Notes under the pieces: model-generated
The model's database searches: none
Told to the model about the DNA's origin: nothing
What the model saw: the letters and a program-made list of their open reading frames with translations, nothing else
Source: a virus
Direction: 5' to 3' (one strand)
UHGV virus genome: UHGV-2124252
DNA: 38,108 nt
Position numbers and translations under genes: made by a program
Shown here: positions 507 through 32,178 of the stretch, one piece after another
Layout: each line of letters opens with the position of its first letter
Position numbering within the stretch: the first letter of the stretch is position 1

Positions 507-1079
507 TTACATTTCAGGTTGCGTTATGACAGTCCCAACAGGGTGATAGCGGTAGATCGTTGACAGTCCAATATCATAGATAATTGCCAGCCGCTTTCTG
601 TCATACCCTTTCTGGAGCAATCTTGCGATCTGCTCATGCTGCTCCTTCGTCAGTTTCGGGCGACGCCCTCCAACTCTTCCTTGTGATCGCGCAGCAGCCA
701 GTCCTGCCAGCGTGCGCTCAACTATCAGTTCACGCTCCATTTCTGCCAGTGCACCCATCATATGAAAAAAGAACCTTCCCATCGGAGTGCTGGTATCGAT
801 TGAATCCGTCAGACTGCGAAAATTGACACCTTTTGCGCGTAGCTCTTCTGTGAGAGCAATGAGGTGTTTCATTCTTCTACCCAACCGATCCAGCTTCCAG
901 ACCACCAATGTATCCCCTCTTTTAAGGCACTTTAAAGCGCGTTTCAGGCCTGGTCGTTCCGACTTGGTTCCGCTCATTTTGTCCTCAAAAATCTGTTCAC
1001 ATCCTGCGCACATTAATGCATTGCGTTGCAAATCTGTGTTTTGGTCATTTGTTGACACACGTATGTAGCCAATCAGCAT
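507..1079 (-). CDS. gin: Serine DNA invertase, Gin/Hin/Cin/Pin family
   Basis: MLIGYIRVSTNDQNTDLQRNAL...GDTLVVWKLDRLGR...FFFHMMGALAEMERELIVERT..., resolvase catalytic Ser motif and C-terminal HTH; ATG at 1079; adjacent to invertible tail-fibre cassettes. Confidence 0.93.
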   Translation of the reverse strand: MLIGYIRVSTNDQNTDLQRNALMCAGCEQIFEDKMSGTKSERPGLKRALKCLKRGDTLVVWKLDRLGRRMKHLIALTEELRAKGVNFRSLTDSIDTSTPMGRFFFHMMGALAEMERELIVERTLAGLAAARSQGRVGGRRPKLTKEQHEQIARLLQKGYDRKRLAIIYDIGLSTIYRYHPVGTVITQPEM

Positions 1080-1133
1080 TAAAAATACTCCCTTTTGAGT
1101 GGTTAAAGTACTGAGATAATGTGGGGAGGATTT

Positions 1134-1159
1134 GAGAGATAAACGTTGGTTTGGGGGAA
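1134..1159 (+). other. gix-like recombination site A (26 bp, 12-2-12)
   Basis: Right half GGTTTGGGGGAA (reverse complement TTCCCCCAAACC fits gix/hix half-site pattern TTnnCnnAAACC), central TT; starts ~150 bp of sequence identical to sites B and C. Confidence 0.55.
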
Positions 1160-1654
1160 GGCTCGGCGCTGCCCGTTGGTGTACCTGTTCCGTGGCCCAC
1201 TGCCACACCGCCAGCAGGCTGGTTAAAGTGCGACGGGCGCGCCTTTACAAAAGAACAATATCCTGTTCTGGCCAGAGCCTACCCGACCCTCCGCCTGCCT
1301 GATTTACGCGGTGAATTTATTCGTGGTTGGGATGATGGGCGAGGGGTTGATACGAGGCGTTCATTGCTAAGTGGTCAGACTGCAACATTTATTCGTACAG
1401 CTTTGCAGGATTATTACGGTGTCGATCTGACTACTAATGTCAAAGTAGGTATCGCTTATGCTACTGCTGATTCTGTTATAACTGTTGGAAACCCTGCTAA
1501 TCCTAAAGCAGGAGATAATAGCGATTATGTTCCAGCATCATCAGATAACTCCATAACAGGCACTCAAAGGACGGCAGAGGATAATTTTACCGGGGCATGG
1601 ATATCAATGCGCCCCCGCAATGTTGCTTTTAATTACATCGTAAGGGCCGCATAA
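1151..1654 (+). CDS. Alternative tail-fibre C-terminal cassette 1 (promoterless, currently not fused to fibre gene)
   Basis: ORF begins inside crossover site, no ATG/RBS; N-terminal 63 aa identical to C-terminal domain start of active fibre (GEGSALPVGVPVPWPTATPPAGWL...), variable middle, conserved end ...RPRNVAFNYIVRAA. Confidence 0.7.
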   Translation: MGEGSALPVGVPVPWPTATPPAGWLKCDGRAFTKEQYPVLARAYPTLRLPDLRGEFIRGWDDGRGVDTRRSLLSGQTATFIRTALQDYYGVDLTTNVKVGIAYATADSVITVGNPANPKAGDNSDYVPASSDNSITGTQRTAEDNFTGAWISMRPRNVAFNYIVRAA

Positions 1655-2144: not shown

Positions 2145-2759
2145 TCAACTGGCAAGTGCCAGTGGCGCTTCCGGCCAGCTGATTTCAGGTGCCGTGCTGA
2201 TATCCAGTGCGTTCAGCTCGTCGATATAATCCAGCACGGCGTTCAGTTTTGCCGTTTCTTCTGGTTTCAGACTGCGACCTGCCCGCAGTTTGAGGTTGAT
2301 GAGGTCGATGGACTTCATCGCCTGATCCACCCGTTTCTGGCGTTGCAGTCTGGCAGTCTCCAGCTCTGCGGTTCGCTGCCGTTCAGTATCGGTTACCCAC
2401 GCCTCACCGTTCCAGGTATCCCATGGCGTGGCTGGCTGTTTTGTGGTGGTGTCCGCCGGGTAATCACCCGGTTGGGTAATCAGAACGGGGTTACCGTTCT
2501 CCGTGCTGTATACCGTCTCGCCGCGGTGATCAGGCACATGCTCCCACCCGTTCAGCGTGGCAGTCCGGCAAACCACGTAACCCGAAATTGCCTCCGGCGG
2601 TGCATCGGCGCACGAATGTGCCGGAGTACCCACCCCAAGGGCGAGATACTCCACAGAGGATGAGGTGTATTCCCGGGTTTCCTCGTCATAGTGATATACA
2701 GTGATCTCGCCCGCTACAGTGGCGATACCGTTTTCATCCAGAACTGCAGTGTTACTCAT
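2145..2759 (-). CDS. Tail fibre assembly protein (Mu U / P2 G / lambda Tfa family)
   Basis: 204 aa, immediately downstream of fibre gene with overlapping TAATG; C-terminal region typical of Tfa chaperones (...KSIDLINLKLRAGRSLKPEETAKLNAVLDYIDELNALDIS...). Confidence 0.8.
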   Translation of the reverse strand: MSNTAVLDENGIATVAGEITVYHYDEETREYTSSSVEYLALGVGTPAHSCADAPPEAISGYVVCRTATLNGWEHVPDHRGETVYSTENGNPVLITQPGDYPADTTTKQPATPWDTWNGEAWVTDTERQRTAELETARLQRQKRVDQAMKSIDLINLKLRAGRSLKPEETAKLNAVLDYIDELNALDISTAPEISWPEAPLALAS

Positions 2760-4282
2760 TAAACTGCCCTCACAATGTAATTAAGTGCAATGCTACGGGG
2801 TCTGACAGTGATACCCTTCGCATACCCGCTTCTGATAGAGGTCAGAATAGTAGCCTGCATACCATTGTCTGACATTGCCACGACAGGATCGCTGAATGTT
2901 GTCCCGTCCGGCATTTTAAAGCTGCCCTCACGAAGGTCTGTAATGGAATCTTCATTGTTGAATCCCATGCCGACTATCCCCGAGGTTCCCGTAGTGTCCT
3001 GGTTATAATAATCCAGCATTGCTGTTCTTAACAGCGTTGCCCCTTGTGCGGACAGCAACTTACGTCCTGTATCAACTTTGCGCCCGTCGTCCCATCCACG
3101 GATAAACTCACCGCGTAAATCGGGAAGACGGAGGGTCGGGTAGGCTCTGGCCAGAACAGGATATTGTTCTTTTGTAAAGGCGCGCCCGTCGCACTTTAAC
3201 CAGCCTGCTGGCGGTGTGGCAGTGGGCCACGGAACAGGTACACCAACGGGCAGCGCCGAGCCTTCCCCCAAACCAAGGTAATTGAGGACATCTTTTATAC
3301 TGCCCTTAGCGATAATAGCGCGACCAATAGCTGTAAGGGTTGCCAGCGCTGCGCGGTCTGCTCCGGTAAAATAAGGCAACCGATCTGCTGCAGTGGCAAG
3401 TCCTGCCAGAGCAGTGAGCGTGGCATCTGCCGGTTGTTTTCCGTTTGCCAGATCGTATGCAGCCTTGACCGCTTTCGGTGTGGCGGCCAGTATTTCAGAC
3501 GTGCTGTTGATGGCACTGCTCAATTGTACGGTGCCTTTTGCCGTCAGCGAGGCAGCAGGCACTCCCGTTATCTGACTCCACGGGTGAGTGTGGCTGACGG
3601 GCGCCTTGCCGGCTGCAAGGTCGTATGCAGCCTTGACCGCCTTCGNNNNNNNNNNNNNNNNNNNNNNNNNNNNNNNAAGGTCGTATGCAGCCTTGACCGC
3701 TTTCGGTGTGGCGGCCAGCGTTTCAGACGTGTTGTTGATGGCACTGCTCAGTTGTACGATCCCTTTACGGGTCGTTGTTGCATCCTGGGCTGTGTATTTT
3801 CCCCGGGCCAGATCATACGCGATTTTCACAGCCTTCGGCGTGGCAGCCTCAGTTTCTGATTGACTGTCCGTGGCGCTGCTCAGTTGTACGGTGCCTTTTG
3901 CCGTCAGTGAAGCCGCAGGCACTCCCGTTATCTGACTCCACGGGTGAGTGTGGCTGGCAGGCGCCTTGCCGGCTGCCAGGTCGTATGCAGCCTTGACCGC
4001 TTTTGGTGTGGCGGCCAGCGTTTCAGAGGTGCTGTTGGTGGCACTGCTCAGTTGGGTGAACCCCTTAGCTGTCAGTGTCGCGTCCGGGTGGTTACGGGAA
4101 CGTACGTGTTCAGCCAGTGACTGTGCGGCTTCCTCCGTTTTCTTCTTCAGCCATTTCGTCCTGTTTGCCAGTTGCCGGGGGGCTCGATTTGATATCCCGT
4201 CTGCACCACCCAGAACCGGATCTGATGTCTCCAGTTGATAGATATTTTCTTCCCACTTTTCTGTTTCATTCAGGTTTCCCAT
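2759..4282 (-). CDS. Tail fibre protein (Mu S / P2 H-like), contains 31-N assembly gap
   Basis: About five tandem ~58-aa repeats (ATPKAVKAAYDL...HTHPWSQITGVPAASLTAKGTVQLSSA...), C-terminal cassette after crossover site C; ATG at 4282 preferred over TTG at 4288. Confidence 0.85.
   Translation of the reverse strand: MGNLNETEKWEENIYQLETSDPVLGGADGISNRAPRQLANRTKWLKKKTEEAAQSLAEHVRSRNHPDATLTAKGFTQLSSATNSTSETLAATPKAVKAAYDLAAGKAPASHTHPWSQITGVPAASLTAKGTVQLSSATDSQSETEAATPKAVKIAYDLARGKYTAQDATTTRKGIVQLSSAINNTSETLAATPKAVKAAYDLXXXXXXXXXXXKAVKAAYDLAAGKAPVSHTHPWSQITGVPAASLTAKGTVQLSSAINSTSEILAATPKAVKAAYDLANGKQPADATLTALAGLATAADRLPYFTGADRAALATLTAIGRAIIAKGSIKDVLNYLGLGEGSALPVGVPVPWPTATPPAGWLKCDGRAFTKEQYPVLARAYPTLRLPDLRGEFIRGWDDGRKVDTGRKLLSAQGATLLRTAMLDYYNQDTTGTSGIVGMGFNNEDSITDLREGSFKMPDGTTFSDPVVAMSDNGMQATILTSIRSGYAKGITVRPRSIALNYIVRAV
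3263..3288 (-). other. gix-like recombination site C (inverted relative to A and B)
   Basis: ttcccccaaacc aa ggtaattgagga on plus strand; lies at the constant/variable boundary of the expressed fibre gene (…LNYLGL|GEGSALP…). Confidence 0.55.
3646..3676. other. Assembly gap (31 N) inside tail-fibre repeat array
   Basis: Run of N flanked on both sides by the same repeat unit (aaggtcgtatgcagccttgaccgc). Confidence 0.95.
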
Positions 4283-4284
4283 AA

Positions 4285-4863
4285 TCAACTGCTCCCGTGG
4301 TTATAACTGCCATCATGGATGGCTGTATTGTTATAGCGAATGGCCACAGACTGATACTCCAGGCTGGCCAGATGGCAGCGGGCCGGTGCAAATGCAGCCA
4401 GCGTCTGACGCAGCATCGCGGCCTGATCGTTAGTAATGGGCTGTTTCAGAATAACGCGATAAACTGCCCAGGCGGCTGCATCTCCATGAACAAACAGTCC
4501 GTTATAGCTGCGATTGCCGTCGTAACTGAGACGACCTGTGCCTTCAATCAGATCCACTTCACCAAAGCCAAAACGGCGGATAACTTCCCGGATTGACCAC
4601 GGCGTCCCTTTATACCGGTGCAGTTCGATGGCTGCTTTTATAAGCATGCGGCGAACATCGTCCGATTCCGCCAGCTCCCAGCCATCGCCAGACAGTGAGA
4701 ACTGCTCGCCCAGCCATGGCAGCGCGGAACTGTCGACGATATCGACGAGAAAGACCATCAGTACGCTCAGGTCGATGTTATCCAGCCGTCCTGCCAGTCT
4801 TCCCAGCGTCCTGAGACTGATATCACCCTCAAGCGGTGGCGGGAGTTGTAATGGCTCAGTCAT
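4285..4863 (-). CDS. Baseplate protein, P2 gpI-like (Mu gp48 position)
   Basis: 192 aa, ATGA overlap with next gene, position between J-like and fibre. Confidence 0.7.
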   Translation of the reverse strand: MTEPLQLPPPLEGDISLRTLGRLAGRLDNIDLSVLMVFLVDIVDSSALPWLGEQFSLSGDGWELAESDDVRRMLIKAAIELHRYKGTPWSIREVIRRFGFGEVDLIEGTGRLSYDGNRSYNGLFVHGDAAAWAVYRVILKQPITNDQAAMLRQTLAAFAPARCHLASLEYQSVAIRYNNTAIHDGSYNHGSS

Positions 4864-6351: not shown

Positions 6352-6948
6352 TCAGTGGGAGTGGTGGCTGGAGTTTTCGCCATCAGACAACATACTGCCC
6401 GTGGCATGGGCATTCCCTTTAATCTCGATATTGCCATGGATGGTCGCGGTAACACCTTCACCACCAGAACCCGCCATGCCTCCTTCGTAAATCAGCTTAC
6501 CCCTGACACGCAGATCTCCGGTAAGTTCGGTTTCCGGTGCGTCAATCGTGGCTTTCTGTGTTTTCAATACCACATCAGCACCACACTCAATGACAATATG
6601 CTCAATGCCGCCCCGGATGGTCAGAGTGTGCGTCTTCCGGTTGTAGCTGTACTCTGCACCATCAGCAAACCGGGTTCCCCGGATATTTTTGTCACTGAAC
6701 GGTGGTTTATCGACGTCTGAATACACCGCGCCCAGAATAACACCATCCTCGCCGTTGGCATCGAGCAGCACCTCAACCTGCTCCCCCACGTCAGGGAGCC
6801 AGTAATCTTTGTTATCCTGGGTATTGCGCTGCAGCACGTTAAGCCAGTTTGTGCGCAGGTTATCGCATTCAGGCAGACGAACGCGGGCCTGAACCCTGTC
6901 GGCATCAACGGCACTGACCGTACCGACCTGACGAGTGACACCAGTCAT
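6352..6948 (-). CDS. Baseplate spike / assembly protein V-like
   Basis: 198 aa, N-terminal OB-fold-like region then Gly-rich C-terminal tip (GGMAGSGGEGV) and His-rich end. Confidence 0.7.
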   Translation of the reverse strand: MTGVTRQVGTVSAVDADRVQARVRLPECDNLRTNWLNVLQRNTQDNKDYWLPDVGEQVEVLLDANGEDGVILGAVYSDVDKPPFSDKNIRGTRFADGAEYSYNRKTHTLTIRGGIEHIVIECGADVVLKTQKATIDAPETELTGDLRVRGKLIYEGGMAGSGGEGVTATIHGNIEIKGNAHATGSMLSDGENSSHHSH

Positions 6949-8099
6949 TTTTTCTTCTCCTTAATCACCGTCGATGTACTGCCATCCGGGTGATAAACCG
7001 TGAGTTTCTGAGTTTTTTGTTTTTTCCCTCTTGTGACTGGCCCCCGTGCCACTTCCAGCTCTGTGGTGTAGCCGCTGTTACGGTCAAACGCATGGCGGGC
7101 AGTGGTTATGAGCCATGGCCCGGATAACTGCCCAAAACCCACCAGTTCAATTTTGTTGCCTGCTGTCAGTTGAGGTGTTCCCGTCAGCGTCAGGGAGCCG
7201 TTCTGCTGGTATTCGTTATGTCTGGCCAGTGCTGAATCCGCTTTAATCCGGGCACTGTCCGGGTCGCTGACGCGGCTGTTAACTTTAAGTGAGTCAGCGC
7301 TGGTAACCTTACCACCTTTGAGCTTTTTGTCGCTTTCACGGGTACCACCATCAGCTTCGTAGACGATCAGTTTTTTACTGCTGCTTTTCTGGTGTTTTAC
7401 CTTTGCAGATTTATAGACCCGGTTGATGGTGTCACGCAGGGAAAAGCGGGCCACATCCTGCGGTTTTAACTGCCTGACCGGCTCCTGACTGCGCAGTGTG
7501 GCCAGATGAGAAAAAATCAGCTGGTCACTGACCACTTTCACTGCATAACCATACTCGCTGGCCAGCCGGCGCAGAAAACCCACGTCGGTTTCAGCATACT
7601 GGGTCACCCGGTCGATTCTGATGGACTCAATGCTGCCCACCAGTTTCAGTCGGTGCTTTCTGGCAATCCGCCCCGCAACAGCTGCCAGCGTGGTGTTCTC
7701 AAAACCACGACTGGTTTTAGTCCGCAGGGCACTGTTAACCGAGGTGGCCACCCCACGGATAGAAACAACGGAAGCGGGCGAACTCACTTCGATCTCGTCT
7801 ATAGAGAACGTACCGCAGGACAGCAGCTTCTCGCCCTGATAGCCCATTTTCAGCGTCAGCGTGTCACCCTTGCCCGGATACCACTTATCCAGCCAGCGGC
7901 CATCGGTGTCGTCCAGCTCCACCTCAATGGTATCGGACTCATTTTTGATGTTATCGCTCCAGGTCACACGGGTGACATAAGGCGCGATATCAGAGGTGAT
8001 GTTTTTCTGCAGATACCACAGAGTGAACACCGGTGTCAGCACATCGCTGACGCCGGTTAACGCTGATGTGACTTGCGCAGTGCTGTTTATCTCAGCCAT
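6945..8099 (-). CDS. Tail protein, P2 gpD-like (Mu gp44 baseplate hub position)
   Basis: 384 aa; motif DVGFLRRLASEYGY resembles P2 gpD region; gene order. Confidence 0.7.
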   Translation of the reverse strand: MAEINSTAQVTSALTGVSDVLTPVFTLWYLQKNITSDIAPYVTRVTWSDNIKNESDTIEVELDDTDGRWLDKWYPGKGDTLTLKMGYQGEKLLSCGTFSIDEIEVSSPASVVSIRGVATSVNSALRTKTSRGFENTTLAAVAGRIARKHRLKLVGSIESIRIDRVTQYAETDVGFLRRLASEYGYAVKVVSDQLIFSHLATLRSQEPVRQLKPQDVARFSLRDTINRVYKSAKVKHQKSSSKKLIVYEADGGTRESDKKLKGGKVTSADSLKVNSRVSDPDSARIKADSALARHNEYQQNGSLTLTGTPQLTAGNKIELVGFGQLSGPWLITTARHAFDRNSGYTTELEVARGPVTRGKKQKTQKLTVYHPDGSTSTVIKEKKK

Positions 8100-8299
8100 G
8101 GGGCAATATCCTCTTCTGTACGGGCTTCTTCAGCCTCAATCACCGGGATCAGTAACAACAGCCCGGAGGGCAGCACCGGCGTGATGGCCACGTGCGGATT
8201 GGCGGCAATAATCCGGGGATAGCCCAGCGGGTCACCGTAGTACTGCCATGCCAGCGAATCCCAGCGCTCTCCGTCACGGGTAACATGTTCAAGAAACAT
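8087..8299 (-). CDS. Tail protein X-like (LysM-like small tail protein)
   Basis: 70 aa, ATG at 8299 overlapping upstream stop (ATGA); resembles P2 gpX. Confidence 0.6.
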   Translation of the reverse strand: MFLEHVTRDGERWDSLAWQYYGDPLGYPRIIAANPHVAITPVLPSGLLLLIPVIEAEEARTEEDIAPWLR

Positions 8300-9183
8300 C
8301 ACACACTCCTCGTCAGTATTCTGGCGGCCATTGCACTTAATCCCGGAGACATGCGGTTGAATGCTGTGCCGACGGCGTTAAGCTGCCCGGAAACGGTATC
8401 CAGAGCACCTGCAATATTTCTTTTGTCCACACCACTCAGCGCAGACTGTGCCTGCTGTACATACGTGGCTGCTTCGCTGGCTGTTCTGGCCAGACTGATG
8501 GCATCGGGCATGGATTCAGAGAGTGCGTTAAACGCCGGAACACTTTTCCCCAGAGCCCCGGAGATATTACCCAGTCCGCTCATCAGCCCCGGCACACGGG
8601 TCAGTGCGACAACGGGGTTATCCTTCATTTTCTGTGTCACCCGAACGGCGCTGATAGTGGTCTGGAGTACAGACTGCGCCTGTTTCGCATAGTTGACGCC
8701 GTTGCGGATGAACTGCGCCACCCCGGAAGGTGAAGGAATGGCACCGGAGACCGCCCCGACACCCGGGAGCTTCGTGCGTATTGCCGGTGGTTGCAGAGGA
8801 TTTTTCGGGTCACCGGTGTATTCCCGGAGAGACACGGTGGCACTGACAGCCAGCACGTTGCCGGTACTGTCAGTCTGCTCGCTGGTTGCAGTCACATCGG
8901 TAATCACGAACCAGCCGCGATAGTCACCGTTGCCGAAGACCAGCGCCAGTGCCTGATGGGCTTTCATGGCTGTTCGCAGTCTCGCCAGCTCCACATCGGG
9001 TACACAATAATGCTGATGGAAAACCAGAGTTATCTGGATTTCGTCCAGCCTGTCGCCGACGAACTGCAGGCCAGGCTTACCCCCGATGCGGGCATGCTCC
9101 GCATAATCGACGCCGAACGTGGCCTCGAAGCCGTCCCAGTAGGTAATCAGCTCAAACTCAATATCACCCAGTACGGCAAACAT
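8299..9183 (-). CDS. Tail protein, P2 gpU-like N-terminal domain (Mu DNA-circularisation protein N region)
   Basis: 294 aa directly downstream of tape measure gene with ATGA overlap; N-terminal pattern similar to gpU family. Confidence 0.55.
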   Translation of the reverse strand: MFAVLGDIEFELITYWDGFEATFGVDYAEHARIGGKPGLQFVGDRLDEIQITLVFHQHYCVPDVELARLRTAMKAHQALALVFGNGDYRGWFVITDVTATSEQTDSTGNVLAVSATVSLREYTGDPKNPLQPPAIRTKLPGVGAVSGAIPSPSGVAQFIRNGVNYAKQAQSVLQTTISAVRVTQKMKDNPVVALTRVPGLMSGLGNISGALGKSVPAFNALSESMPDAISLARTASEAATYVQQAQSALSGVDKRNIAGALDTVSGQLNAVGTAFNRMSPGLSAMAARILTRSV

Positions 9184-12134
9184 CAGCGGTACTCCTTACG
9201 TTGTTTCTGAGCCAGCAGACGCTCCAGCATTTTTTCCAGCTCATGCAGACTCATATTCAGGGCACCAGTCAGTCCTGCAGGCGCTGTGGTTTCCCTGCCA
9301 TTGAGGAAAAACTGAGGATTAAAGCTGACCTGGATACCACCAGACGTTCCACCGCCGGTTGCAGCTGCACCACGGCCTGAATATCCGGCAGCCAGGATTT
9401 CAGGCGAGGGGATACGGGGAACATCCGGTGTCATCTCATTTGCCAGACGTTGCCCTGGTAAAATCGATGCCCGGGTGGAGAGCGGAATAGCGGGCATGGA
9501 AGACAAACTATTGATTACGGCTCCGATCGCATTTTTAGCAGACGACATAAACCCATTGATATCGGGCAACGGCATACTGAAGCGAACACCTGAAGTGTTA
9601 TCCCGTATTTCTGGCCCCTGAATGCTCACGGGCATTTTGGGGAGCAGTTCACTGGCCATTCGCTGCCCGGCCAGAGCTGCAAGCGGAGTGGTCCGCTGCA
9701 GGCCAATGGCGGCCCCCTGCGCGATATTGTCACCAAAGCCCATAAACACGCGGCTCAGCGAATGAATGCCCAGCTTTTCGCTGAACCAGCCACTGATGCT
9801 GTCGCCCATTCCGGTTACACTGGATTTGAGCGACTCCCATTTGTTTTTGATACCGTTAATCAGACCATCGACAAGATGGCCACCGAAGTCGGTAAACTTT
9901 GCCGGCAGATCAACACCAAGATATTTCAGCGCAGCTGCAAAGGCTTTATAGAGCAGACCTGCCGGCGACCAGTTAATCAGCAGCTTACCAGTTCCCGCGA
10001 TACCGCCGTTAAAGGCTTCCTGAATGTCAGCCCAGCACTGTTTAAACCAGCTACTGATGCTGTCACCCATTCCGGTTACACTGGATTTGAGCGACCCCCA
10101 TTTGCTTTTGATACCGTTAATCAGACCGTCGATAAGATGGCCACCGAAGTCGGTGAACTTTGCCGGCAGAGCAACGCCGAAATATTTCAGCGCAGCCGCA
10201 AAGGCTTTATAGAGCAGGCCTGCCGGCGACCAGTTAATCAGCAACTTACCAGTTCCCACAATGCCGCCGTTAAAGGCTTCCTGAATGTCAGCCCAGCGCT
10301 GTTTAAACCAACCACTGACAGCCCCCCAGTTGCGGTAGATAAGGTAAGCTGCTGCCGCGACAGCGGTGATAACGAGACCGATGGGATTCATCATCAGCGC
10401 TCGCCCAATCCAGAGAACGGCACGTGCAGCGCTCATAAAACCGCGAACGAGGCTGCCCGCCAGAACTTTGCTGAGTTTCAGTCCTCCGCTGGTCAGTCGG
10501 CTGAATCCAGTGACAAGCCAGCGTAATTTGCCACCTTCTCCGAGTGCGGTAGTCAGTCGATGCCAGTTGGTCCGGAGTAAAACAGCATTTTTCCAGACAC
10601 TTACAAAGGGGGAAATAAGGAGATTCAGCCCCAGTTTGAGACCAACAGTCGCTATCTTAATCGCAAGGAGCGCACTGATGAGCTTAAAAGCCCCACTGAC
10701 AAATTGCGGGTGAGTCGCTACCCAGTGTTTTGCCCCCTGAATGAGTGGAAGCAGTTCCTGAGTCAAAGAAATAAAAGATGGAGCTAATTGATCGCCCAGC
10801 GTAATTGCCAGATCGCGACTGCTGACCATAAGTGTTTTAGTGGCTTCAAGGGGAGATTTCAGTCGCTGATCGTAAGCACTGGCAAGCAAATCGTTATCCG
10901 CAGCCCTGAGAGCACCGGCACGGATCTCTCGATATCTGTCCATGTTGGCCAGCATCGGGCGGATAAATGCCATGACCTGCATATCCGCGAACATATCACC
11001 CAGACCAAAGTTTTTCGCCAGAGCCTGAAGTGCCTCATCTCTTGCCGTATCATTCTTTATTTTCATGGCGGATTTGAAGCCGGCCAGCGCTTCGGGGCTT
11101 TTGGCATTGAGGTAACGTTCTATAACACTCAACATCCCTTCAATCGGAGAGATCCCCGCAGCCTTATAACTCGCAATAGATCCCTGCAAATCAATACCCA
11201 GATCAGCAAACTGTTTCTGAGTATCGCGGGCAAAAATTTTGGTAAGAAAGTTTTTAAAATTATTGGCTGCTTCGTCGGTGGAACCTGCACCGATTTTTGC
11301 TATCTGGAGACTGGCCCCGATTTCAGCAACAGCCTCTTTTCCACTGGCAATACCCGCCATCATTGGGGCCAGGGACTGCATCCACTTGACCTGATCCGGG
11401 ATTTCAAATGACCCCTGGTCACCGGCATAAGCCATAATATTCTGAACGGCACCAAAATCTCTGGCCGCACCTTTCAGGGAGTTTTGCCAGACTGCGGCCA
11501 CTTTTGCCCAGTCCTGAGCAGACGTGCGTGTTGCCGTTGTCGCGCGGGCAATATCCGGCATCAGAAAACCGATATCTGACACATTATCAATATTGTCGCT
11601 GATGAGTGAACCCACCGCCTCCTGCAGCTCATCCTGATACTGATTGTATTTAAGCGCCCAGCCTTTTATCTGTCCGGCAAGTGCATCCCGCGTTTTATTG
11701 TCATATTTTGCGGTGATCGACATATCAATCATTTTGTCCTGAAAAGACATGGACTGCTGAACGGCAGGGGAAACCGTATGATAAACAGTCTGTGCCATGC
11801 CATACGCTTCAATCCCCTGACCATACAGCGCCATGCGGTTAGCTTTCAGCGCATCACTGGTAGCGGATGCCGCTGACAGACGGCGCTGCTGGCGCTCAAT
11901 TTGCTCCATGGTGCGGCTTACCCGCAGCAGCTCGCTGTTGAGATGCTGCATCCGGGAAGAACCCAGTTGACCATAACGTTCTGTTGCACGGGTTAAAGCG
12001 TTCTGACGTTCCTGCAGGCGGCGTGAGGTATCGCTCAGGGAATCAAGCGCACGGCGGGTACCGCTCATTGCAGAACGGAATGTGCTGCCAATCATCCCGC
12101 CGATAACAACGCCGACTGAAAACTGTCCCGACAT
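9183..12134 (-). CDS. Tail tape measure protein
   Basis: 983 aa, helical N-terminus, hydrophobic central segments, internal 87-aa tandem duplication, follows frameshifted chaperone genes; GGAGG RBS. Confidence 0.9.
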   Translation of the reverse strand: MSGQFSVGVVIGGMIGSTFRSAMSGTRRALDSLSDTSRRLQERQNALTRATERYGQLGSSRMQHLNSELLRVSRTMEQIERQQRRLSAASATSDALKANRMALYGQGIEAYGMAQTVYHTVSPAVQQSMSFQDKMIDMSITAKYDNKTRDALAGQIKGWALKYNQYQDELQEAVGSLISDNIDNVSDIGFLMPDIARATTATRTSAQDWAKVAAVWQNSLKGAARDFGAVQNIMAYAGDQGSFEIPDQVKWMQSLAPMMAGIASGKEAVAEIGASLQIAKIGAGSTDEAANNFKNFLTKIFARDTQKQFADLGIDLQGSIASYKAAGISPIEGMLSVIERYLNAKSPEALAGFKSAMKIKNDTARDEALQALAKNFGLGDMFADMQVMAFIRPMLANMDRYREIRAGALRAADNDLLASAYDQRLKSPLEATKTLMVSSRDLAITLGDQLAPSFISLTQELLPLIQGAKHWVATHPQFVSGAFKLISALLAIKIATVGLKLGLNLLISPFVSVWKNAVLLRTNWHRLTTALGEGGKLRWLVTGFSRLTSGGLKLSKVLAGSLVRGFMSAARAVLWIGRALMMNPIGLVITAVAAAAYLIYRNWGAVSGWFKQRWADIQEAFNGGIVGTGKLLINWSPAGLLYKAFAAALKYFGVALPAKFTDFGGHLIDGLINGIKSKWGSLKSSVTGMGDSISSWFKQCWADIQEAFNGGIAGTGKLLINWSPAGLLYKAFAAALKYLGVDLPAKFTDFGGHLVDGLINGIKNKWESLKSSVTGMGDSISGWFSEKLGIHSLSRVFMGFGDNIAQGAAIGLQRTTPLAALAGQRMASELLPKMPVSIQGPEIRDNTSGVRFSMPLPDINGFMSSAKNAIGAVINSLSSMPAIPLSTRASILPGQRLANEMTPDVPRIPSPEILAAGYSGRGAAATGGGTSGGIQVSFNPQFFLNGRETTAPAGLTGALNMSLHELEKMLERLLAQKQRKEYR

Positions 12135-12209: not shown

Positions 12210-12627
12210 CTATGATTTGTCGCCGTACTCGCTTTTGATTTGCTCTTCAGCCTGCTCCAGCCACATCTCCAGATCGTCAGTATCGAGGGCATCAATCTCC
12301 CCCGGCTGAAACCGGAACCATCTCGCCAGCAGCCCCTGCGCCTGCGTCAGCGCCCTGGTTGCTCTCACCCATCCCCGTGATGAGCTGAAATCGTTTCTGT
12401 AACTGCAGGTAATCAGCCAGATCCATATTGTCGAGATCCTCCGGGAGAAGACCAGTACTGCGGGCAATCAGCGGTTCGTCCCAGTCTGCCGGGTTTTTGC
12501 TGATTTTGCGCACCTGCTTCAGGTCTTTTACCGTCAGGCGTTTCAGTTCAACCAGCTCAATTCTGGTGCCTGCAGCAGTGGTGAAGGGATAAGACAATTT
12601 AAAAGTATCGGATGGGGTCTGTGACAT
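12210..12627 (-). CDS. Tail assembly chaperone, frameshift-extended form (predicted)
   Basis: Second ORF (12210..12467) is protein-like only in its last ~40 codons (…FQPGEIDALDTDDLEMWLEQAEEQIKSEYGDKS); it is in +1/-2 frame relative to the upstream ORF; run of five G (minus strand, 12299-12303) at the overlap. Confidence 0.5.
12292..12627 (-). CDS. Tail assembly chaperone, short form (P2 gpE / Mu gp41-like)
   Basis: 111 aa ORF immediately upstream of tape measure gene; overlapped at 3' end by second frame. Confidence 0.7.
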   Translation of the reverse strand: MSQTPSDTFKLSYPFTTAAGTRIELVELKRLTVKDLKQVRKISKNPADWDEPLIARSTGLLPEDLDNMDLADYLQLQKRFQLITGMGESNQGADAGAGAAGEMVPVSAGGD

Positions 12628-13008: not shown

Positions 13009-13530
13009 TCAGCCCCCGATATTGATACGGTAGTCAGTCAGTTGATCAACACCGCCGACCCGGAAGATGTTGGCCAGATAGTCCAGTTGCAGCAGCTCTT
13101 CACCATCCAGTACCTGTCTGATATACGTGCAGGTGAAGCTACTGGAGAACTCGGCGTTCTCGTGCTGTTTGAACGTCCCCAGCGGGTTCTTCTTGAACAT
13201 AATCGTCAGGAAGGTGACCAGCGGGATTTCGTCAATCAGCCCCTGCGAGCTGTAGCGCTGGACGCTGGAACGACACTGCAGTGCCAGCGACCTGTACGGG
13301 TTCGCGGCAGACAGCATCGCATCGCGGTAAAAGCTGTTCCATTTGATTTCGCCTTCCAGTTTGTCAAAACCAGCCGGGAGTTCCACCTTACCCACCATCC
13401 CCAGCGCCTTGTGTTCCTGCATAATCATGGAGACATCGGGGAGTTTAACTTCCTCAGCCCGTCCCAGCAGGTTAGTACCATCCAGATAGATGTTGGCATT
13501 CGTGATGCGGTTTATCTCAATCTTTGACAT
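13009..13530 (-). CDS. Major tail tube protein (P2 FII / Mu M-like)
   Basis: 173 aa, follows sheath gene with overlapping start/stop. Confidence 0.8.
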   Translation of the reverse strand: MSKIEINRITNANIYLDGTNLLGRAEEVKLPDVSMIMQEHKALGMVGKVELPAGFDKLEGEIKWNSFYRDAMLSAANPYRSLALQCRSSVQRYSSQGLIDEIPLVTFLTIMFKKNPLGTFKQHENAEFSSSFTCTYIRQVLDGEELLQLDYLANIFRVGGVDQLTDYRINIGG

Positions 13531-14957
13531 CAGTTGCCCCCTTTCAGGGTTAACAGGTATTCCGAGGTGATCTCAGTCTCAAACGTCAGTCGCTCCAGCG
13601 GCGGTGGTGGCGTATATTTGTAGCTCAGCAACAGGTGCCCGGCGGCCAGCTCCGTCTCCGGATTGCGGGCCGGATCAAACCAGCAACGGAAGCCCAGTAC
13701 CGCACCATCACCAGTCATTTTGCGACCGTAGGCGTTGACCGACTCCGTCAGTGCATCAATCAGCGCCTGAGTAATCGGCATGTCGATGTACTGCTGGCTG
13801 AAATAACGAATGGACTCGTTGATCACATCACCGGTGCGGCGAACGTTCTCAAAGTTACGCATATGGGTGACCGTTGGCCATGCTGCCGTCCGGTTACCCC
13901 ACAGACGAAGGCCGCTGCCGTAACTGCTGAATACCGTGGTGATCCCCTGTTCGTTAAGCAGGTTCACCTCACTCTGCGGGTCATCAATCATCGCGGACAG
14001 CTGGCGCTCCACGCCGGTGATCCCCAGAATCTCCTGATTGGAGGATGACCACCAGTAGCCCTTGTCCAGATCGACTCTGGCACGCAGACCTGCTGCACGC
14101 TGGCTGAGCGGCTCCAGACGCTCTGTGTTTGTCACCGGGTCATATACCTTCACATGCGGATAGCACAGACGGACGCGGTCGGAGCTGGTATTGAAGTTGA
14201 TGGTGCCTTCCGGGCCACGACCTGCCAGAGCCTGTGCAAAGGTGGTACCGACAGGCGCATCAATGTAGGTTACCGCGCCCAGCTTCTCTGCCATGGCGAT
14301 AAGCTCAACTGCGACACTCTTCTGGGTGCAGAACACCGGCGCAATCAGAATTTTGGCGAAATAGCCGTACAGGTTGAAGCTGTCGTTAAGCAGCTTCATG
14401 CCGGTTCGGTTTCCGGCGCTGTTCACCCCGCCGATGATGTCCGCCGCAGTCACCTTCGACGGGTCCGCGTACTCATAGCTCACCTTCACGCTGCCACCGG
14501 CCTCAATAGCCTTGCCCAGGTTCGTGAGCACACCCGCCTGCGCATCAACACGGTAGTCCGTGTTCGCCGTGTGGGTGGTGCTGCCTTCACTGTTTTTCAC
14601 CACCACATTAGCGACAACCGGATGCGCCAGTCTGGCCTGCCCTGTCGATTTGTCAAAGGTAACCACCTCATCCTCGATCGCCGTTTTATGTTTCGCCGGG
14701 TCGAGGACGTTAATGACCAGAACGGTGCCTGCACCATGGTCATAAATCGCATCCAGCGCCTGCGGAATGGTAAAGCCGGTGAACTGGCTGCCAAATGCCG
14801 CTGCGTCTTTCTCAGACAGGCACTGTACCAGCGTATTGACATCCCCCATCGGGGCGGTACCAATCAGGCCAATAACGGCAGATTTCACCGTTTTAACCGG
14901 GCGGGCACCGTTTTCCACCTCAATGGTTTCGGGACCATGCAGATAGTTAGCTGCCAT
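13530..14957 (-). CDS. Tail sheath protein (P2 FI / Mu L-like)
   Basis: 475 aa, position and size; contractile-tail module. Confidence 0.85.
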   Translation of the reverse strand: MAANYLHGPETIEVENGARPVKTVKSAVIGLIGTAPMGDVNTLVQCLSEKDAAAFGSQFTGFTIPQALDAIYDHGAGTVLVINVLDPAKHKTAIEDEVVTFDKSTGQARLAHPVVANVVVKNSEGSTTHTANTDYRVDAQAGVLTNLGKAIEAGGSVKVSYEYADPSKVTAADIIGGVNSAGNRTGMKLLNDSFNLYGYFAKILIAPVFCTQKSVAVELIAMAEKLGAVTYIDAPVGTTFAQALAGRGPEGTINFNTSSDRVRLCYPHVKVYDPVTNTERLEPLSQRAAGLRARVDLDKGYWWSSSNQEILGITGVERQLSAMIDDPQSEVNLLNEQGITTVFSSYGSGLRLWGNRTAAWPTVTHMRNFENVRRTGDVINESIRYFSQQYIDMPITQALIDALTESVNAYGRKMTGDGAVLGFRCWFDPARNPETELAAGHLLLSYKYTPPPPLERLTFETEITSEYLLTLKGGN

Positions 14958-19216: not shown

Positions 19217-20038
19217 TTATCCTCTCAGTTCCTGTTGTGCCAGTGGCTGAAGCGTACCCTGATAGCGGGCCAGGTCGGGACGGTATGCTGCCCCCGGTGC
19301 ATAAGACCAGCCGACGTCGGTGGTCACCTTCGTGGTGCCGGTATTAAAGGTGGCCACGTTCCGCATTTCGCCGGTTTTCTCTGAGACCAGTTTCAGTTCC
19401 TGGCCCATGGCAGAGCCGGAGCTGATAACCTTCAGGCCACGGGCACGGACATCCGCCGCACTCAGGGCAATCACACTACAGCGGCAGCGCCAGCCGTTCG
19501 GCGGGTAAAATGCCTGCCAGAACGGGTCATCCCAGCGCAGCACCAGACCATGCAGCGCCAGATGGCTCCTGCGGGTATGGCTGTCGTTGATGCCGGTATA
19601 CATCCAGTACGGCCTGTCGTCGACGTTTTCCATCTGTTCCGCCCAACGACCGGCGCTGTAGAGTACGGACATATTGGTGCGAAAGATGGTATCGAGCCGC
19701 CACGGACTGCCCTGCTGAATGGTGACCGGCTTACCCGTTACCGGGTCAGTCGTGTCACGTGGTCCCCACCATCCCTTACGCTTCAGCACCGGCTCCAGCT
19801 CCTGCCGGAACCAGCGATCGGTTTTTCCTTCATCGACAGCCTGCTGCAGTGCCCCGCGAATATCTTCCAGGATATCCAGGCGGGTCACTTTAGCAACGGT
19901 AAAGGCGCGGGCATGGGCCTCCTGCCACATTTCTTCCCAGTCCCAGGTAATCTGATACCCTTTGGACTTCAGGTAACTGACTGCCCGCTTCGGGGGAAGC
20001 GTCATGCAGTACGCCAGTTCAGCCGTTGTCACGCTCAT
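19217..20038 (-). CDS. Head morphogenesis protein (Mu F / SPP1 gp7 family)
   Basis: C-terminal RxxH...CRC-containing region; start chosen at ATG 20038 with GGGGA RBS. Confidence 0.75.
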   Translation of the reverse strand: MSVTTAELAYCMTLPPKRAVSYLKSKGYQITWDWEEMWQEAHARAFTVAKVTRLDILEDIRGALQQAVDEGKTDRWFRQELEPVLKRKGWWGPRDTTDPVTGKPVTIQQGSPWRLDTIFRTNMSVLYSAGRWAEQMENVDDRPYWMYTGINDSHTRRSHLALHGLVLRWDDPFWQAFYPPNGWRCRCSVIALSAADVRARGLKVISSGSAMGQELKLVSEKTGEMRNVATFNTGTTKVTTDVGWSYAPGAAYRPDLARYQGTLQPLAQQELRG

Positions 20039-21515
20039 GCAGACGTCCCCGGATATTTGCCACAAAGAGAATGCGGGCCAGCCGTTCCTGCAGATCGTCC
20101 GTGTTCATCTGAGGGTAGAGCTCCGCCAGTTCGCCCAGCAGCTCAGACGGGTTAACCCCGTTTTCGACCCGCTTAAACAGAGGTGCCAGGACGGGTTCCA
20201 GCGTGCCATTTAACACACCTCCGTTCATCAGAATGTCCAGCGCGTCGTCAAGCTGCTGCTGAGCCTGAATATCGGCATCAATCGCCTCGGCAAATGACAG
20301 CGGCAGCATGTTATTCTGGCGTTCCGACGGTGGTGTCTCGTCAATATCGCCGTCCTGCAGCTGGTACTCACGCTTAAAGTATTGCGGGGTCAGACGCAGA
20401 CCCGCCCGGGTGAGTTTTTCGTCGCGGGTGGCGCGGGTGTCATCAATGGTCTCCTGTTCCCACATGGCCCAGACCGGACACGGCACATCGCCGAAGTTCA
20501 GGGTGACCACCGTTCTGATAACCTGATTCACTGCTGCCTGAATGATGTCCGCATCCGCATCGCGGATATCAGCCGTTACCTCCAGCCCGGCCTGTGCAGA
20601 GGCCTTGTTACTGTTCGCTTCCGTGGTCTGATTCTGACCAAGTAATGCAATGGAGATCTCACTGCGTGACAGTGTGATCAGCTCGCGGAATACCTCGCTG
20701 CTGTCCGCCTTACCATCCGCGGCTTTGAGTTCGATGCTGCTGTCATCGGGGATGGCGGCCACCGCGTCCTCCACCATCTGCTCCATGGAGTCCAGCAGTT
20801 TTTCAATCTCTGCATCATTTGCACCCCTCGGGTGCTTACCGATCACCCACGGGGAGCCAAACTTTTCGGCAAAGCGGAGCCAGAATTTCATCCCGCCTTT
20901 CTTGAAGGCGACCGGCCAGAAGCACATGGACAGGTCCGGGAAACCGTAAGGATTGTCATACGAGGCATCCTGTGCCGGCACCACGAATTTTGACGGTGAC
21001 AGCAGCTCACCCTCCACACCCGCATCACGCGCCCGGAAGCGCAGGCAGTTGTCCGTATCAAACTGAAACCACTCAGGCGGTTTGCCGACAATATCCGTCA
21101 CTGCCCACGCCCTGACCGAACGGCCCCACATGATTTCACAGGGCTGATACCCGTAGAGCACGGCATCACTCATCTCACCGATGATGCGGGACAGATCCAG
21201 ATCGTCGAGCATGTCGCGGATGAAACGGAAGACCCGGGCAGAAGCGTGACCGCGCTCCAGTCCACGCTCCAGTGATTTGAGCGCTGCTTTACGTCTGCGG
21301 ATACAGCCCCCGACCAGCGGGTCGGTGCGCAGTTCGCGGTAGATACGGATATCCCGTCCCTGAGCCTTGAGAATGGGATCAGGATTGGGCAGATACATGC
21401 CCAGTCCGTAAAAGTCGATCGCGCGGCTGCGGGAGGCAATCTGCGCGGTCAGTGATTTCTGAGGCTCAGAAAAAGCAACAAATTCATCGGGTGAAACCCA
21501 GATACCTTTAGCCAT
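20019..21515 (-). CDS. Portal protein (Mu H / gp29-like)
   Basis: 498 aa between terminase and F-like genes. Confidence 0.85.
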   Translation of the reverse strand: MAKGIWVSPDEFVAFSEPQKSLTAQIASRSRAIDFYGLGMYLPNPDPILKAQGRDIRIYRELRTDPLVGGCIRRRKAALKSLERGLERGHASARVFRFIRDMLDDLDLSRIIGEMSDAVLYGYQPCEIMWGRSVRAWAVTDIVGKPPEWFQFDTDNCLRFRARDAGVEGELLSPSKFVVPAQDASYDNPYGFPDLSMCFWPVAFKKGGMKFWLRFAEKFGSPWVIGKHPRGANDAEIEKLLDSMEQMVEDAVAAIPDDSSIELKAADGKADSSEVFRELITLSRSEISIALLGQNQTTEANSNKASAQAGLEVTADIRDADADIIQAAVNQVIRTVVTLNFGDVPCPVWAMWEQETIDDTRATRDEKLTRAGLRLTPQYFKREYQLQDGDIDETPPSERQNNMLPLSFAEAIDADIQAQQQLDDALDILMNGGVLNGTLEPVLAPLFKRVENGVNPSELLGELAELYPQMNTDDLQERLARILFVANIRGRLHERDNG

Positions 21516-23038
21516 CAGTACCCCTCCAGCATGCGGGCCGCCTGACGACGACGGCGTGAGCTTGCCTTCACCGGCCCTTTGTTAATTTCACGGCTGGCGA
21601 AATACGCCAGCGCCAGTGCGATGGCTGAATCCCCGTGACGTTTACCACCATCAGCCTTTGCTTTTGAGCGTTGCTCCGGCACGCGGGGGACACCATTCAC
21701 CACCTGAACGGCCCGCAGGTCATCCAGTGTGTCTTCATCCTTTGGTAAGTCCACCAGGTTACCGTCTTCCAGTGCAGCTTTGACCGGAGGCATATGCTCC
21801 CGGTACCAGCCTTCGGTTGGCATCACCTGCTGAACCCGGCCGGAGCCGTAGCGCTGCATGGCGTATTCAGCCAGATAGGCACCATTACCACGGGCATCAA
21901 ACGCTGCACCCAGCAGACCGGGCAGGCCATCCATCAGATACCAGGTGATTTGCTCCTGCTGCCTGAACGGCACGTTACGCAACTCCAGTACGAATGGCAC
22001 GCGTCGTATCAGGTTCTTCTCCTGCAACAACGGGTAGTCCACCGACAAATCCCCGCTACGGCCAAAGTCACGCCCCAGAAAAGAGCGGGCACCAGCGGGG
22101 AGCGCCTCCAGTAATGGTTTCAGATGCTCATCAAGCCAGTCCTGCGTCTCGCGGAAGCGAACCTCATCAGACAGCAGTTCATAACCTTCCTTGCAGGTCA
22201 GACGCAATACCGGCGTATCAGCGGACATGCGGGACTCTATCAGGGCTCGGGACAGCCAGGCACCGCCACCGTTGGCCGGAATACAGTCAAGCTCTTCGGA
22301 TGCACCGGCACCGTAGAATTTGTACACCGACGCCATCCAGGCCTGCTCGGATGCCTCCGACCATTCCTTCCCGGTGCGCAGACAAACGCGCCGGAACAGC
22401 CCCTCAGATACGGCTTCCCGGAAAGTAATGCGATGTACGCTGCCTCCCTGACGTCCGGCACGGATATCCCCGATAAGCGTATTGAACGGATTGTCGTCAC
22501 CGTCATGGGTGGAGATAACGCGTACCTTTCCCCCCCAGATAAGCATCGCCAGCGCCGCTTTCAGCAGTTCGTCCAGTTGCTCATGGAACGCCGCTTCGTC
22601 GATAACAATAATACCCTGACGGCCACGCAGGTTAGACGGGCGGCTGGAGAGCGCAACAATACGAAAGCCGGAGTCAGGAAATTTGATGGTGTAAGTCCTG
22701 ATGTGTTTGTCGTCGTCGTCCTCTTCCCAGAATCCTTCTTCAATTTCACTGGCCGCATAGTTGAATGCCCGTGCCCACATCGCACACGCCTGAATGTATT
22801 CGACGGTCATGTCCTGGTTATAAGCGATGTAATACACATTCATCCCGCCTGCTGGCGCAGAAGAGGCGGCGGTCAGTACGTTATCGGATGCCTCAGCCCA
22901 TGTAATACCGGTACGACGGCTCTTTTCTATCACCTTAAGCGGAGAGGCATCTGCCACCCAGCGCTGCTGGTAGGGCAACAGAACGGGAGGGGCCTTATAA
23001 CTCGCGGTGTCAGGAATGTGCGGCGGCAGCTCCGTCAT
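21515..23038 (-). CDS. Terminase large subunit (Mu gp28-like)
   Basis: 507 aa, ATPase region with Walker B-like IVIDEAAF, acidic nuclease-like C-terminal part. Confidence 0.85.
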   Translation of the reverse strand: MTELPPHIPDTASYKAPPVLLPYQQRWVADASPLKVIEKSRRTGITWAEASDNVLTAASSAPAGGMNVYYIAYNQDMTVEYIQACAMWARAFNYAASEIEEGFWEEDDDDKHIRTYTIKFPDSGFRIVALSSRPSNLRGRQGIIVIDEAAFHEQLDELLKAALAMLIWGGKVRVISTHDGDDNPFNTLIGDIRAGRQGGSVHRITFREAVSEGLFRRVCLRTGKEWSEASEQAWMASVYKFYGAGASEELDCIPANGGGAWLSRALIESRMSADTPVLRLTCKEGYELLSDEVRFRETQDWLDEHLKPLLEALPAGARSFLGRDFGRSGDLSVDYPLLQEKNLIRRVPFVLELRNVPFRQQEQITWYLMDGLPGLLGAAFDARGNGAYLAEYAMQRYGSGRVQQVMPTEGWYREHMPPVKAALEDGNLVDLPKDEDTLDDLRAVQVVNGVPRVPEQRSKAKADGGKRHGDSAIALALAYFASREINKGPVKASSRRRRQAARMLEGY

Positions 23039-23577
23039 GATACCACCCCCAGAATTTCCCGGCGCAGTGCCTGTACGGCTTCCGCAGAGAGCCCGCCCTT
23101 ACGGGCAATTTTCTCGGCGGCAGCGGCAGCACGTTCAACCCTCTCTCTGACTTCTGCCTGATAGCGCTTGAGGTTGACCGAGGCGCGGGTCAGTGTGGCG
23201 ATATTTTTTGAAGCCGTTGCCAGCAGTTTTGCCCGGGCGAAGGGATCGTCGTTTTCCCGCGACTCCTGCAGGCGCATCAGGATATCCGTCATTTCGGTCT
23301 GGACGAGGGTTATCAGCCCGGCTGAACGGTCATCAGGATCGTCTCCGGCCTCCCGGGCAAGCAGACGCGCTGCCTCGGTTGCCGCCCGCACCCGGGCCAG
23401 TTGCTGCTCCATTTTGTAGCCAAACCGCTGCAGGGAAGAGCGGGTGATGCTGTACCCCTTTTCCTTCAACAGACTTTCAAGCTCTGCATAGCCGGTGAAA
23501 TTATTCTCCGTCAGTGCCCGCTCAAGCCAGCGACGGACCTCCTTCGGCAGAGAATCAATGCTGCTGCGACGTCCCAT
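23035..23577 (-). CDS. Terminase small subunit-like DNA-binding protein (Mu gp27-like)
   Basis: MGRRSSIDSLPKEVRRWLE... N-terminal HTH; immediately upstream of large terminase. Confidence 0.65.
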   Translation of the reverse strand: MGRRSSIDSLPKEVRRWLERALTENNFTGYAELESLLKEKGYSITRSSLQRFGYKMEQQLARVRAATEAARLLAREAGDDPDDRSAGLITLVQTEMTDILMRLQESRENDDPFARAKLLATASKNIATLTRASVNLKRYQAEVRERVERAAAAAEKIARKGGLSAEAVQALRREILGVVS

Positions 23578-23579
23578 AA

Positions 23580-23891
23580 TCACTCACTCCAGTATTTTTC
23601 CGGGCGGGCAATACCGGGGCCGCATTCCACGGTGTATTCCACAATATCCACACCAAGGCGACTCAGATCGGCAAACCAGTCACCGGAAGGCCTCTTCTCC
23701 AGTTCCACCATCTTGCGATCTGCCAGGTAATCAAGCTCACGGCGCAGCTCCAGTTGCGTGGTGTCCGGGTAGATGGCGCGGGACACTTCCAGCAGCAGCG
23801 TCTCGCTGGCGGTATAAGGGCGGGTTTTGTTCAGGGCAACCAGCAGACTCCAGCGCAGGGATTCGCGGCGTACCCGGGTAATATCGACCAT
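23580..23891 (-). CDS. Hypothetical protein (Mu gp26 position)
   Basis: 103 aa, coupled. Confidence 0.5.
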   Translation of the reverse strand: MVDITRVRRESLRWSLLVALNKTRPYTASETLLLEVSRAIYPDTTQLELRRELDYLADRKMVELEKRPSGDWFADLSRLGVDIVEYTVECGPGIARPEKYWSE

Positions 23892-32168: not shown

Positions 32169-32178
32169 GGAGGGATAC

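Follow-up and report, generated by a model that had tools for sequence, protein, structure and literature searches.

Does a duplicated segment inside the tail tape measure gene of a prophage mark a step in tail length, an ongoing expansion of a repeat or an error of genome assembly? This question is raised by a tandem repeat in the 38,108-nucleotide (nt) virus genome UHGV-2124252, the whole of which is hereafter called the window, where a minus-strand gene at 9183-12134 (2952 base pairs, bp) encodes a tape measure protein of 983 amino acids (aa). A first-pass annotation made from the DNA alone had described an in-frame 261-bp tandem duplication within this gene and had named all three explanations. 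Our analysis favors, with good confidence, a reading in which the array is the two-unit allele of a variable number tandem repeat (VNTR), the copy number of which is altered by unequal recombination and each unit of which would, according to the published ratio of tail length to tape measure length, be worth about 13 nm of tail.

The gene is identified as encoding a tape measure protein by family match and by its position among the tail genes. Pfam family PF10145 (PhageMin_Tail) was matched at aa 159-340 with E=1.3e-19 and 71.3 bits vs. a cutoff of 33.2, several PHROG families of the type "tail length tape measure protein" were matched as well (e.g., phrog_28, E=1.9e-134), and RefSeq labels the same gene in relatives "phage tail tape measure protein." Within the gene, Tandem Repeats Finder reported a single array at 9784-10318 with a period of 261, 2.0 copies, 92% matches, 0 indels, and a score of 937, and a separate repeat search of the window returned two 261-nt copies at 93% identity. 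The array amounts to 522 bp in total. Unit A (10050-10310, minus strand, aa 609-695) represents the N-terminal and unit B (9789-10049, minus strand, aa 696-782) the C-terminal copy, each consisting of 261 nt or 87 codons, a multiple of three and in frame. The duplication and the 87-aa repeat peptide had been described correctly. The third copy said to begin near 10310 proved to be the shared boundary motif S-G/S-W-F: similarity past this position ends within about 8 nt, and alignment of the next 261 nt on either side of the array yielded neither a third nor an older copy, leaving exactly two units. On the minus strand, the upstream array boundary (10299-10316) reads S-G-W-F-K-Q, encoded by AGTGGTTGGTTTAAACAG, the junction of units A and B (10038-10055) S-S-W-F-K-Q, and the downstream boundary (9777-9794) S-G-W-F-S-E, W-F being common to all three.

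Units A and B share 79 of 87 residues. At the nucleotide level they differ at 18 positions spread over 17 codons, half of them (9/18) at the third position of codons read in the tape measure frame, and the longest run identical between them measures 34 nt. Counted according to Nei and Gojobori, 10 of these differences are synonymous and 8 nonsynonymous (dS=0.19, dN=0.041), and the resulting dN/dS of 0.22 between the units indicates that both copies were maintained as protein by purifying selection. Local alignment of the unit with the rest of the protein (BLOSUM) gave scores of 31-32, no better than the shuffled mean of 32.9. Autocorrelation revealed a weak heptad signal as sub-periodicity of the unit, with lag 7 being the strongest (z = 3.0-3.2); lags 11 (z = 1.8-1.9), 29, and 42-44 were not significant in the tape measure protein. 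An antisense open reading frame (ORF) at 9762-10526 (254 aa) was also considered as coding and was classified as noncoding in view of 13 nonsynonymous vs. 4 synonymous codon differences between the copies.

Comparison with close relatives revealed that the number of units varies. One-unit genes (2691 bp, 896 aa) are found in JMK_KBN3987 (L004) as well as in L010-L013, two-unit genes (2952 bp, 983 aa) in the window and most relatives, and three-unit genes (3213 bp, 1070 aa) in AF4 (L005), SK0189 (L006, NZ_AP046539), 18044 (L008), and an ST131 strain (L009, NZ_CP103710). For the two-unit allele of the window, USVAST219 and KE21 are the nearest matches in the database. The ORFs are intact in all three size classes, in complete Escherichia coli genomes. 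A comparison of tape measure lengths among related prophages had been proposed in the first-pass annotation, with a copy number fixed in all relatives as the outcome speaking against its reading; the lengths of 896, 983, and 1070 aa instead show a variable one, and the reading stands in this respect.

In order to quantify the alleles, a census of 5426 complete E. coli genomes was performed with three probes; the tape measure gene was matched in 636 of these genomes. A 100-nt probe for the junction between two units matched at 780 places in 572 genomes and a 100-nt probe over the boundary between unit and C-terminal flank at 640 places in 587 genomes, which corresponds to a mean of 2.2 units per gene. 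The one-unit probe was matched in a single piece in 68 genomes, comprising 16 of the close family, with identities of at least 96.6%, and about 52 of a more distant KP12-like type. Assuming a maximum of three units, simple arithmetic on these probes splits the close family into approximately 16 one-unit, 468 two-unit, and 156 three-unit genes, i.e., allele shares in complete genomes of roughly 2.5%, 73%, and 24%. The same lengths of 896, 983, and 1070 aa dominate the best 120 clusters obtained from a collection of 5.8 billion proteins. The remaining clusters among these 120 are mostly shorter or partial with the same unit counts, two of them (P0006 and P0065) carrying small extra indels. More than three units were found in none of the best 120 clusters, a four-unit protein being expected to score above all others. 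Among distant relatives, Klebsiella phage KP12 (821 aa), Phi06_2974 B, and E. coli IAL7250 (825 aa) carry one unit and lack a further segment of 71 aa.

The 18 sites separating unit A from unit B allowed us to score the origin of each unit in the other alleles. The one-unit alleles begin with A-type sites and change once to B-type sites; the switch is located at nt 13-48 in IPCEC48 and AVS0947, at nt 93-114 in JMK_KBN3987 and UPEC129, and at nt 246-259 in F1140. Such a clean A-then-B order is one of the C(18,k) orderings at a given composition, i.e., about 1 in 10^4 for mixed compositions. The unit of the outgroup KP12 is interleaved at the same sites (abbabbabaabaaabbab). We also considered the one-unit alleles as the ancestral state and rejected this option, as their sites split into head and tail whereas those of the outgroup are interleaved; on the same grounds, the one-unit alleles are deletion products that arose at least three times. 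Among the three-unit alleles, the middle unit of 18044 has a B-type head and an A-type tail, and from its site pattern is the reciprocal product to be expected from unequal crossing-over. The middle units of L005, L006, and L009 are A-like, and the same mosaics occur among the protein clusters. Outside the array, the genes of AF4 and SK0189 both match the window without a single difference over 1824 + 606 nt, with their units 1 and 3 being exactly A and B. Consequently, the copy-number change separating them from the window is younger than any point substitution in the remaining gene. The ongoing repeat expansion proposed earlier is supported and can be specified further: among near-identical prophages carrying one, two, or three units, the copy number changes both up and down.

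Based on these patterns, the following course of events is proposed. A one-unit ancestor would have duplicated the unit once, possibly primed by 8 nt of microhomology at the unit borders, where an exact 8-mer (TGGTTCAA) is present on both sides in one-unit relatives of the KP12 type. Both copies then diverged under the purifying selection visible in their substitutions. Since then, as the pattern of chimeric alleles shows, whole units have repeatedly been gained and lost through slippage or unequal homologous recombination, for which the two units at 93% identity offer a substrate, with intact products of 896, 983, and 1070 aa as outcomes. The partners in such an exchange could be sister chromosomes, related prophages sharing a genome, or the two units of a single prophage. 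Several prophages of the family per genome are common (640 genes in 587 genomes, up to three each) and would provide partners for such ectopic exchange. The repeat numbers sometimes differ within one genome, e.g., in NZ_OZ547000 with two genes and three junctions.

The consequence for the virion can be estimated from the ruler function of tape measure proteins. Tails grow in proportion to their tape measure, with 0.145-0.15 nm for every residue, and become shorter when the protein carries internal deletions (PMC5099701; PMC9928086 citing Katsura and Hendrix 1984). According to a further study, copied or removed gene parts change tail length, and duplication and loss of units is how tape measure genes evolve in nature (PMC3271669). 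Tube and sheath would polymerize along the extended, mostly helical tape measure protein to its end. By this rule each unit would add about 12.6-13 nm, roughly three rings of tube and sheath, and tails of approximately 134, 147, and 160 nm are predicted for one, two, and three units, so that the phage probably makes tails stepping by about 13 nm. The earlier estimate of 13 nm corresponds to the product of 87 aa and the published ratio and thus agrees with ours as a prediction. Rings of contractile tails have a rise of about 3.8-4.1 nm. With this value, one unit equals about 3.2-3.4 rings, a non-integer number.

Several points weigh against the VNTR reading. The array directly follows two hydrophobic segments and might lie outside the portion of the protein that serves as a ruler. 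An AlphaFold2 model predicts helix for nearly the whole of aa 575-830 with low confidence (mean predicted local distance difference test, pLDDT, of 54.5), making the extended-helix geometry of the unit an assumption. Single events may have been gains or losses: the middle unit of L005 and L006, 2 nt away from unit A, would suit a loss out of a three-unit ancestor just as it would a gain. The origin of the first duplication from microhomology is a conjecture. The frequencies in complete genomes are skewed by over-sampled clonal ST131. In addition, some one-unit proteins in databases could originate from short-read assemblies with a perhaps collapsed repeat, for which reason the census was built on complete genomes and the one-unit counts of the protein database were not used as frequencies.

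The most serious alternative accepts the polymorphism as real and leaves tail length unaffected: the unit could be folded back, lie in the baseplate or in a region for membrane insertion, or be processed away, with its number drifting neutrally. We regard this as unlikely, although the position behind the hydrophobic segments would suit it. Gly-rich stretches within the unit, at which the helices are broken in the AlphaFold2 model, point in the same direction. So does a profile of the region, which reaches the solved tape measure chains 9m8o_M, 6v8i_CF, 9d93_Na, and 8kea_G and aligns to the C-terminal third of such chains, e.g., to residues 885-1131 of 6v8i_CF; no match was obtained when the sequence of the whole protein was compared with the PDB. 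In TP901-1, however, tails were shortened by a deletion beside the hydrophobic segments in the same way as by repeat deletions, and full extension of the protein is implied by the fit (PMC5099701). Furthermore, the purifying selection on both copies (dN/dS=0.22) and the intact ORFs of all three alleles stand against neutral drift, and the number of modules varies widely across the family, as for a length-setting spacer.

That wide variation was found by an exhaustive HMMER search with unit B, which detected 624 representative proteins (threshold E<=1e-3). Full-length sequences account for 92 of the best 143 representatives; 57 of these 92 carry one copy of the module, 25 two, 8 three, and 2 four. 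The modules are spaced by 42-50, 72-77, 87, or approximately 110 aa, and in some distant relatives a half-unit of about 42 aa is repeated. Neighboring copies in several lineages resemble each other more closely (62-78% identity) than they do the E. coli unit (36-48%), which points to independent, lineage-specific duplications.

Going beyond the VNTR reading itself, the 87-aa module might serve as an evolvable length cassette, in which fast recombination lets one lineage sample tails of about 134, 147, and 160 nm from which selection chooses. We consider this extension quite improbable at present. If true, thickness of the host capsule or O-antigen and the distance to the inner membrane would be candidate selectors, and the array would give a phage with a contractile tail a slow "contingency locus" governing the geometry of its virion.

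A further alternative, a fixed ancient domain duplication inherited unchanged by all relatives and static since, can be regarded as refuted. The 7% divergence between the units (dS=0.19) does show that the first duplication was not very recent, and two units are present in about 73% of the family genes in complete genomes. Against this stand the existence of one- and three-unit alleles, the three distinct chimeric breakpoints among the former, the at least two kinds of the latter, and the identity of a three-unit allele with the window outside the array.

An assembly artefact, i.e., a duplication or copy-number differences created by mis-assembly of the repeat, as had also been considered in the first-pass annotation, is practically excluded, because an artefactual duplication would be exact and the copies differ at 18 positions (7%) with identical runs of no more than 34 nt. 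The two-unit gene is moreover colinear in hundreds of independently assembled complete genomes; in an even sample of 60 complete-genome matches, 42 carry it at its full 2952 bp with 97-99.9% identity. The one-unit allele of JMK_KBN3987 recurs, identical, in 11 complete genomes, and the three-unit allele is found in several complete genomes from different countries. In favor of mis-assembly, assemblies from short reads do fail at the repeat. The only closely related deposited phage genome, Escherichia phage PhiKM (PQ738613), has a gap of 100 N exactly at the repeat (L001 3853-3952), inside the array, where the copy number is unreadable; its tape measure gene is recorded as "disrupted by sequencing gap" and divided into two coding sequences. 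Many partial tape measure fragments in the protein database derive from contigs of 335-960 nt. A protein search with a 199-aa region yielded short fragments alone, which served for the alignment and as a sign of broken assemblies and were kept out of the copy counts.

The repeat also seems to confuse the annotation pipeline. Three of four checked three-unit genes are marked by RefSeq (PGAP) as partial pseudogenes despite intact ORFs of 3213 bp and 1070 aa: L005 2347-5112 (NZ_OZ547143) is given as one fragment with "missing C-terminus," and L008 1924-5136 (NZ_AP022326) as well as L009 2185-5397 (NZ_CP103710) are each annotated as two fragments.

Tape measure repeats, their evolution by duplication and loss, and the ruler mechanism are already known, and in terms of mechanism the present case is ordinary. 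Its closest counterparts are gpH of phage lambda (Katsura and Hendrix 1984) and the tape measure protein of TP901-1 (Mahony et al. 2016, PMC5099701), which represent the same protein class in the same gene position. Both tolerate in-frame internal deletions and duplications, with tail length changing by about 0.145-0.15 nm per residue, and the TP901-1 protein, like that of the window, shows hydrophobic segments followed by a repeat region. The length changes in lambda and TP901-1 were engineered in siphoviruses, whereas the window belongs to a natural series of one, two, and three units in a contractile transposable prophage. Tape measures of mycobacteriophages likewise show in-frame duplication and loss of units with copy numbers varying among relatives, as described by Belcaid, Bergeron and Poisson (2011, PMC3271669). 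The unit reported there comprises 11 aa, compared with 87 aa in the window, where an 11-residue period is not significant (z ~1.8-1.9). Unlike in the mycobacteriophage case, the events observed by us distinguish genes that are nucleotide-identical elsewhere, and the recombinant units are directly legible in the sequence. With coding VNTRs and contingency repeats the array shares a unit that is a multiple of three, copy variation among near-identical strains, chimeric units by which the crossovers can be located, and both reciprocal products. In contrast to contingency loci built from short repeats, it consists of one to three long (261-bp) and 7%-diverged units, and its change is therefore probably far slower than that of classical contingency loci; no sign of switching in the manner of phase variation inside a culture was seen. 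In the literature, within the limited coverage available to us, no report of this polymorphism or of tape measure copy-number variation in Bcepmuvirus was found.

The value of the series lies in its natural origin. The ruler rule is mainly based on engineered siphovirus mutants, and here an allelic series is provided by nature for a contractile tail, in about 11% of complete E. coli genomes, the pandemic ST131 among them, which could be used to test the rule as well as a quantization in whole rings without cloning. In parallel, the repeat breaks short-read assemblies and misleads annotation, so that completeness calls for prophages can be wrong. The copy number is also a possible cheap typing marker for this prophage family.

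Apart from the array, the tape measure protein contains two hydrophobic segments according to a Kyte-Doolittle mean of at least 1.6 over 19 residues, segment 1 at aa 478-508 (10611-10703, minus strand) and segment 2 at aa 579-600 (10335-10400, minus strand), the latter directly upstream of the repeat. Protein alignment revealed a second length-variable segment of 71 aa at aa 823-893 (9456-9668, minus strand), flanked by GQR[ML]A.E motifs. It is present in the window and all close relatives and missing from the KP12-type and IAL7250 alleles. The segment is bordered by the similar motifs GQRMASELLPKMPVSIQGPEI and GQRLANEMTPDVPRIPSPEI of about 20 aa, may from this arrangement be an older, mostly decayed duplication, and would by the ruler rule add about 10.5 nm. 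The gene is furthermore mosaic at aa 120-470 (approximately 10725-11775) in comparison to KP12 (L003) and IAL7250 (L007). The N-terminal half of IAL7250 is of the window type, but its unit and C-terminus are of the KP12 type; KP12 differs strongly in the central third, at 62% identity overall. Judged from the alignments, this mosaicism suggests that different prophage lineages have recombined their tape measure alleles.

Judged by its gene content, the window is a BcepMu-like transposable myovirus prophage of E. coli. This identity follows from the combination of Mu-type head and transposition genes, a P2-type tail module, and the closeness to PhiKM, and agrees with BcepMu-like phages (genus Bcepmuvirus; BcepMu, phiE255, and PhiKM), to which a DDE transposase with an ATPase, Mu-type head genes, and a P2-type tail module are common. 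In the window, an rve-family (DDE) transposase domain is encoded in 30399-32168 next to an AAA+ ATPase (AAA_22) in 32152-33345, and Mu-type genes comprise Portal_Mu (20019-21515), Mu gp27 (23035-23583), and Mu Gam (33645-34175). Baseplate and fiber genes of the P2 type, a lytic transglycosylase, and a Dam-type methylase are encoded as well. PhiKM, the closest deposited phage, is 98.4% identical, a value covering the tape measure gene region alone, and its taxonomy line in GenBank ends in Bcepmuvirus. The prophage is widespread in E. coli and occurs in many strains of O25b:H4-ST131. For ST131 genomes, a preprint describes a Bcepmuvirus prophage and one labeled "Burkho_phiE255" (bioRxiv 10.1101/2022.05.07.487787), both of which presumably belong to the same family as the window.

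On the minus strand, the tail genes follow the order sheath (13530-14957), tube (13009-13530), gpE chaperone (12292-12627), tape measure (9183-12134), gpU (8299-9183), gpX (8087-8302), and gpD (6945-8099), an arrangement canonical for contractile tails. The immediate neighbors of the tape measure gene were assigned by Pfam, the upstream one as a tail assembly chaperone of the gpE family (PF10109, E=5.5e-21) and the downstream one, overlapping the tape measure gene by 1 nt, as a gpU-like tail protein (PF06995, E=7.4e-39). No RNA family scored up to its gathering threshold in any part of the window. Upstream of the tape measure gene, two small minus-strand ORFs (12210-12467 and 12292-12627) overlap, and their counterparts in L004 are annotated in RefSeq as "GpE family phage tail protein" and "phage tail assembly protein." This overlapping pair has the usual layout of a chaperone pair produced by programmed -1 frameshifting (gpE/E') and is a candidate for it.

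At the other end of the tail region, a serine recombinase (Pfam Resolvase and HTH_7; 507-1208, minus strand) lies beside tail fiber and fiber-assembly genes, the fiber genes extending over 2145-4288 (minus strand). In the Gin and Cin systems of host-range inversion, the invertase likewise sits beside the fiber genes, and invertase-linked rearrangements of fiber genes were described in the ST131 preprint for this kind of prophage (bioRxiv 10.1101/2022.05.07.487787).

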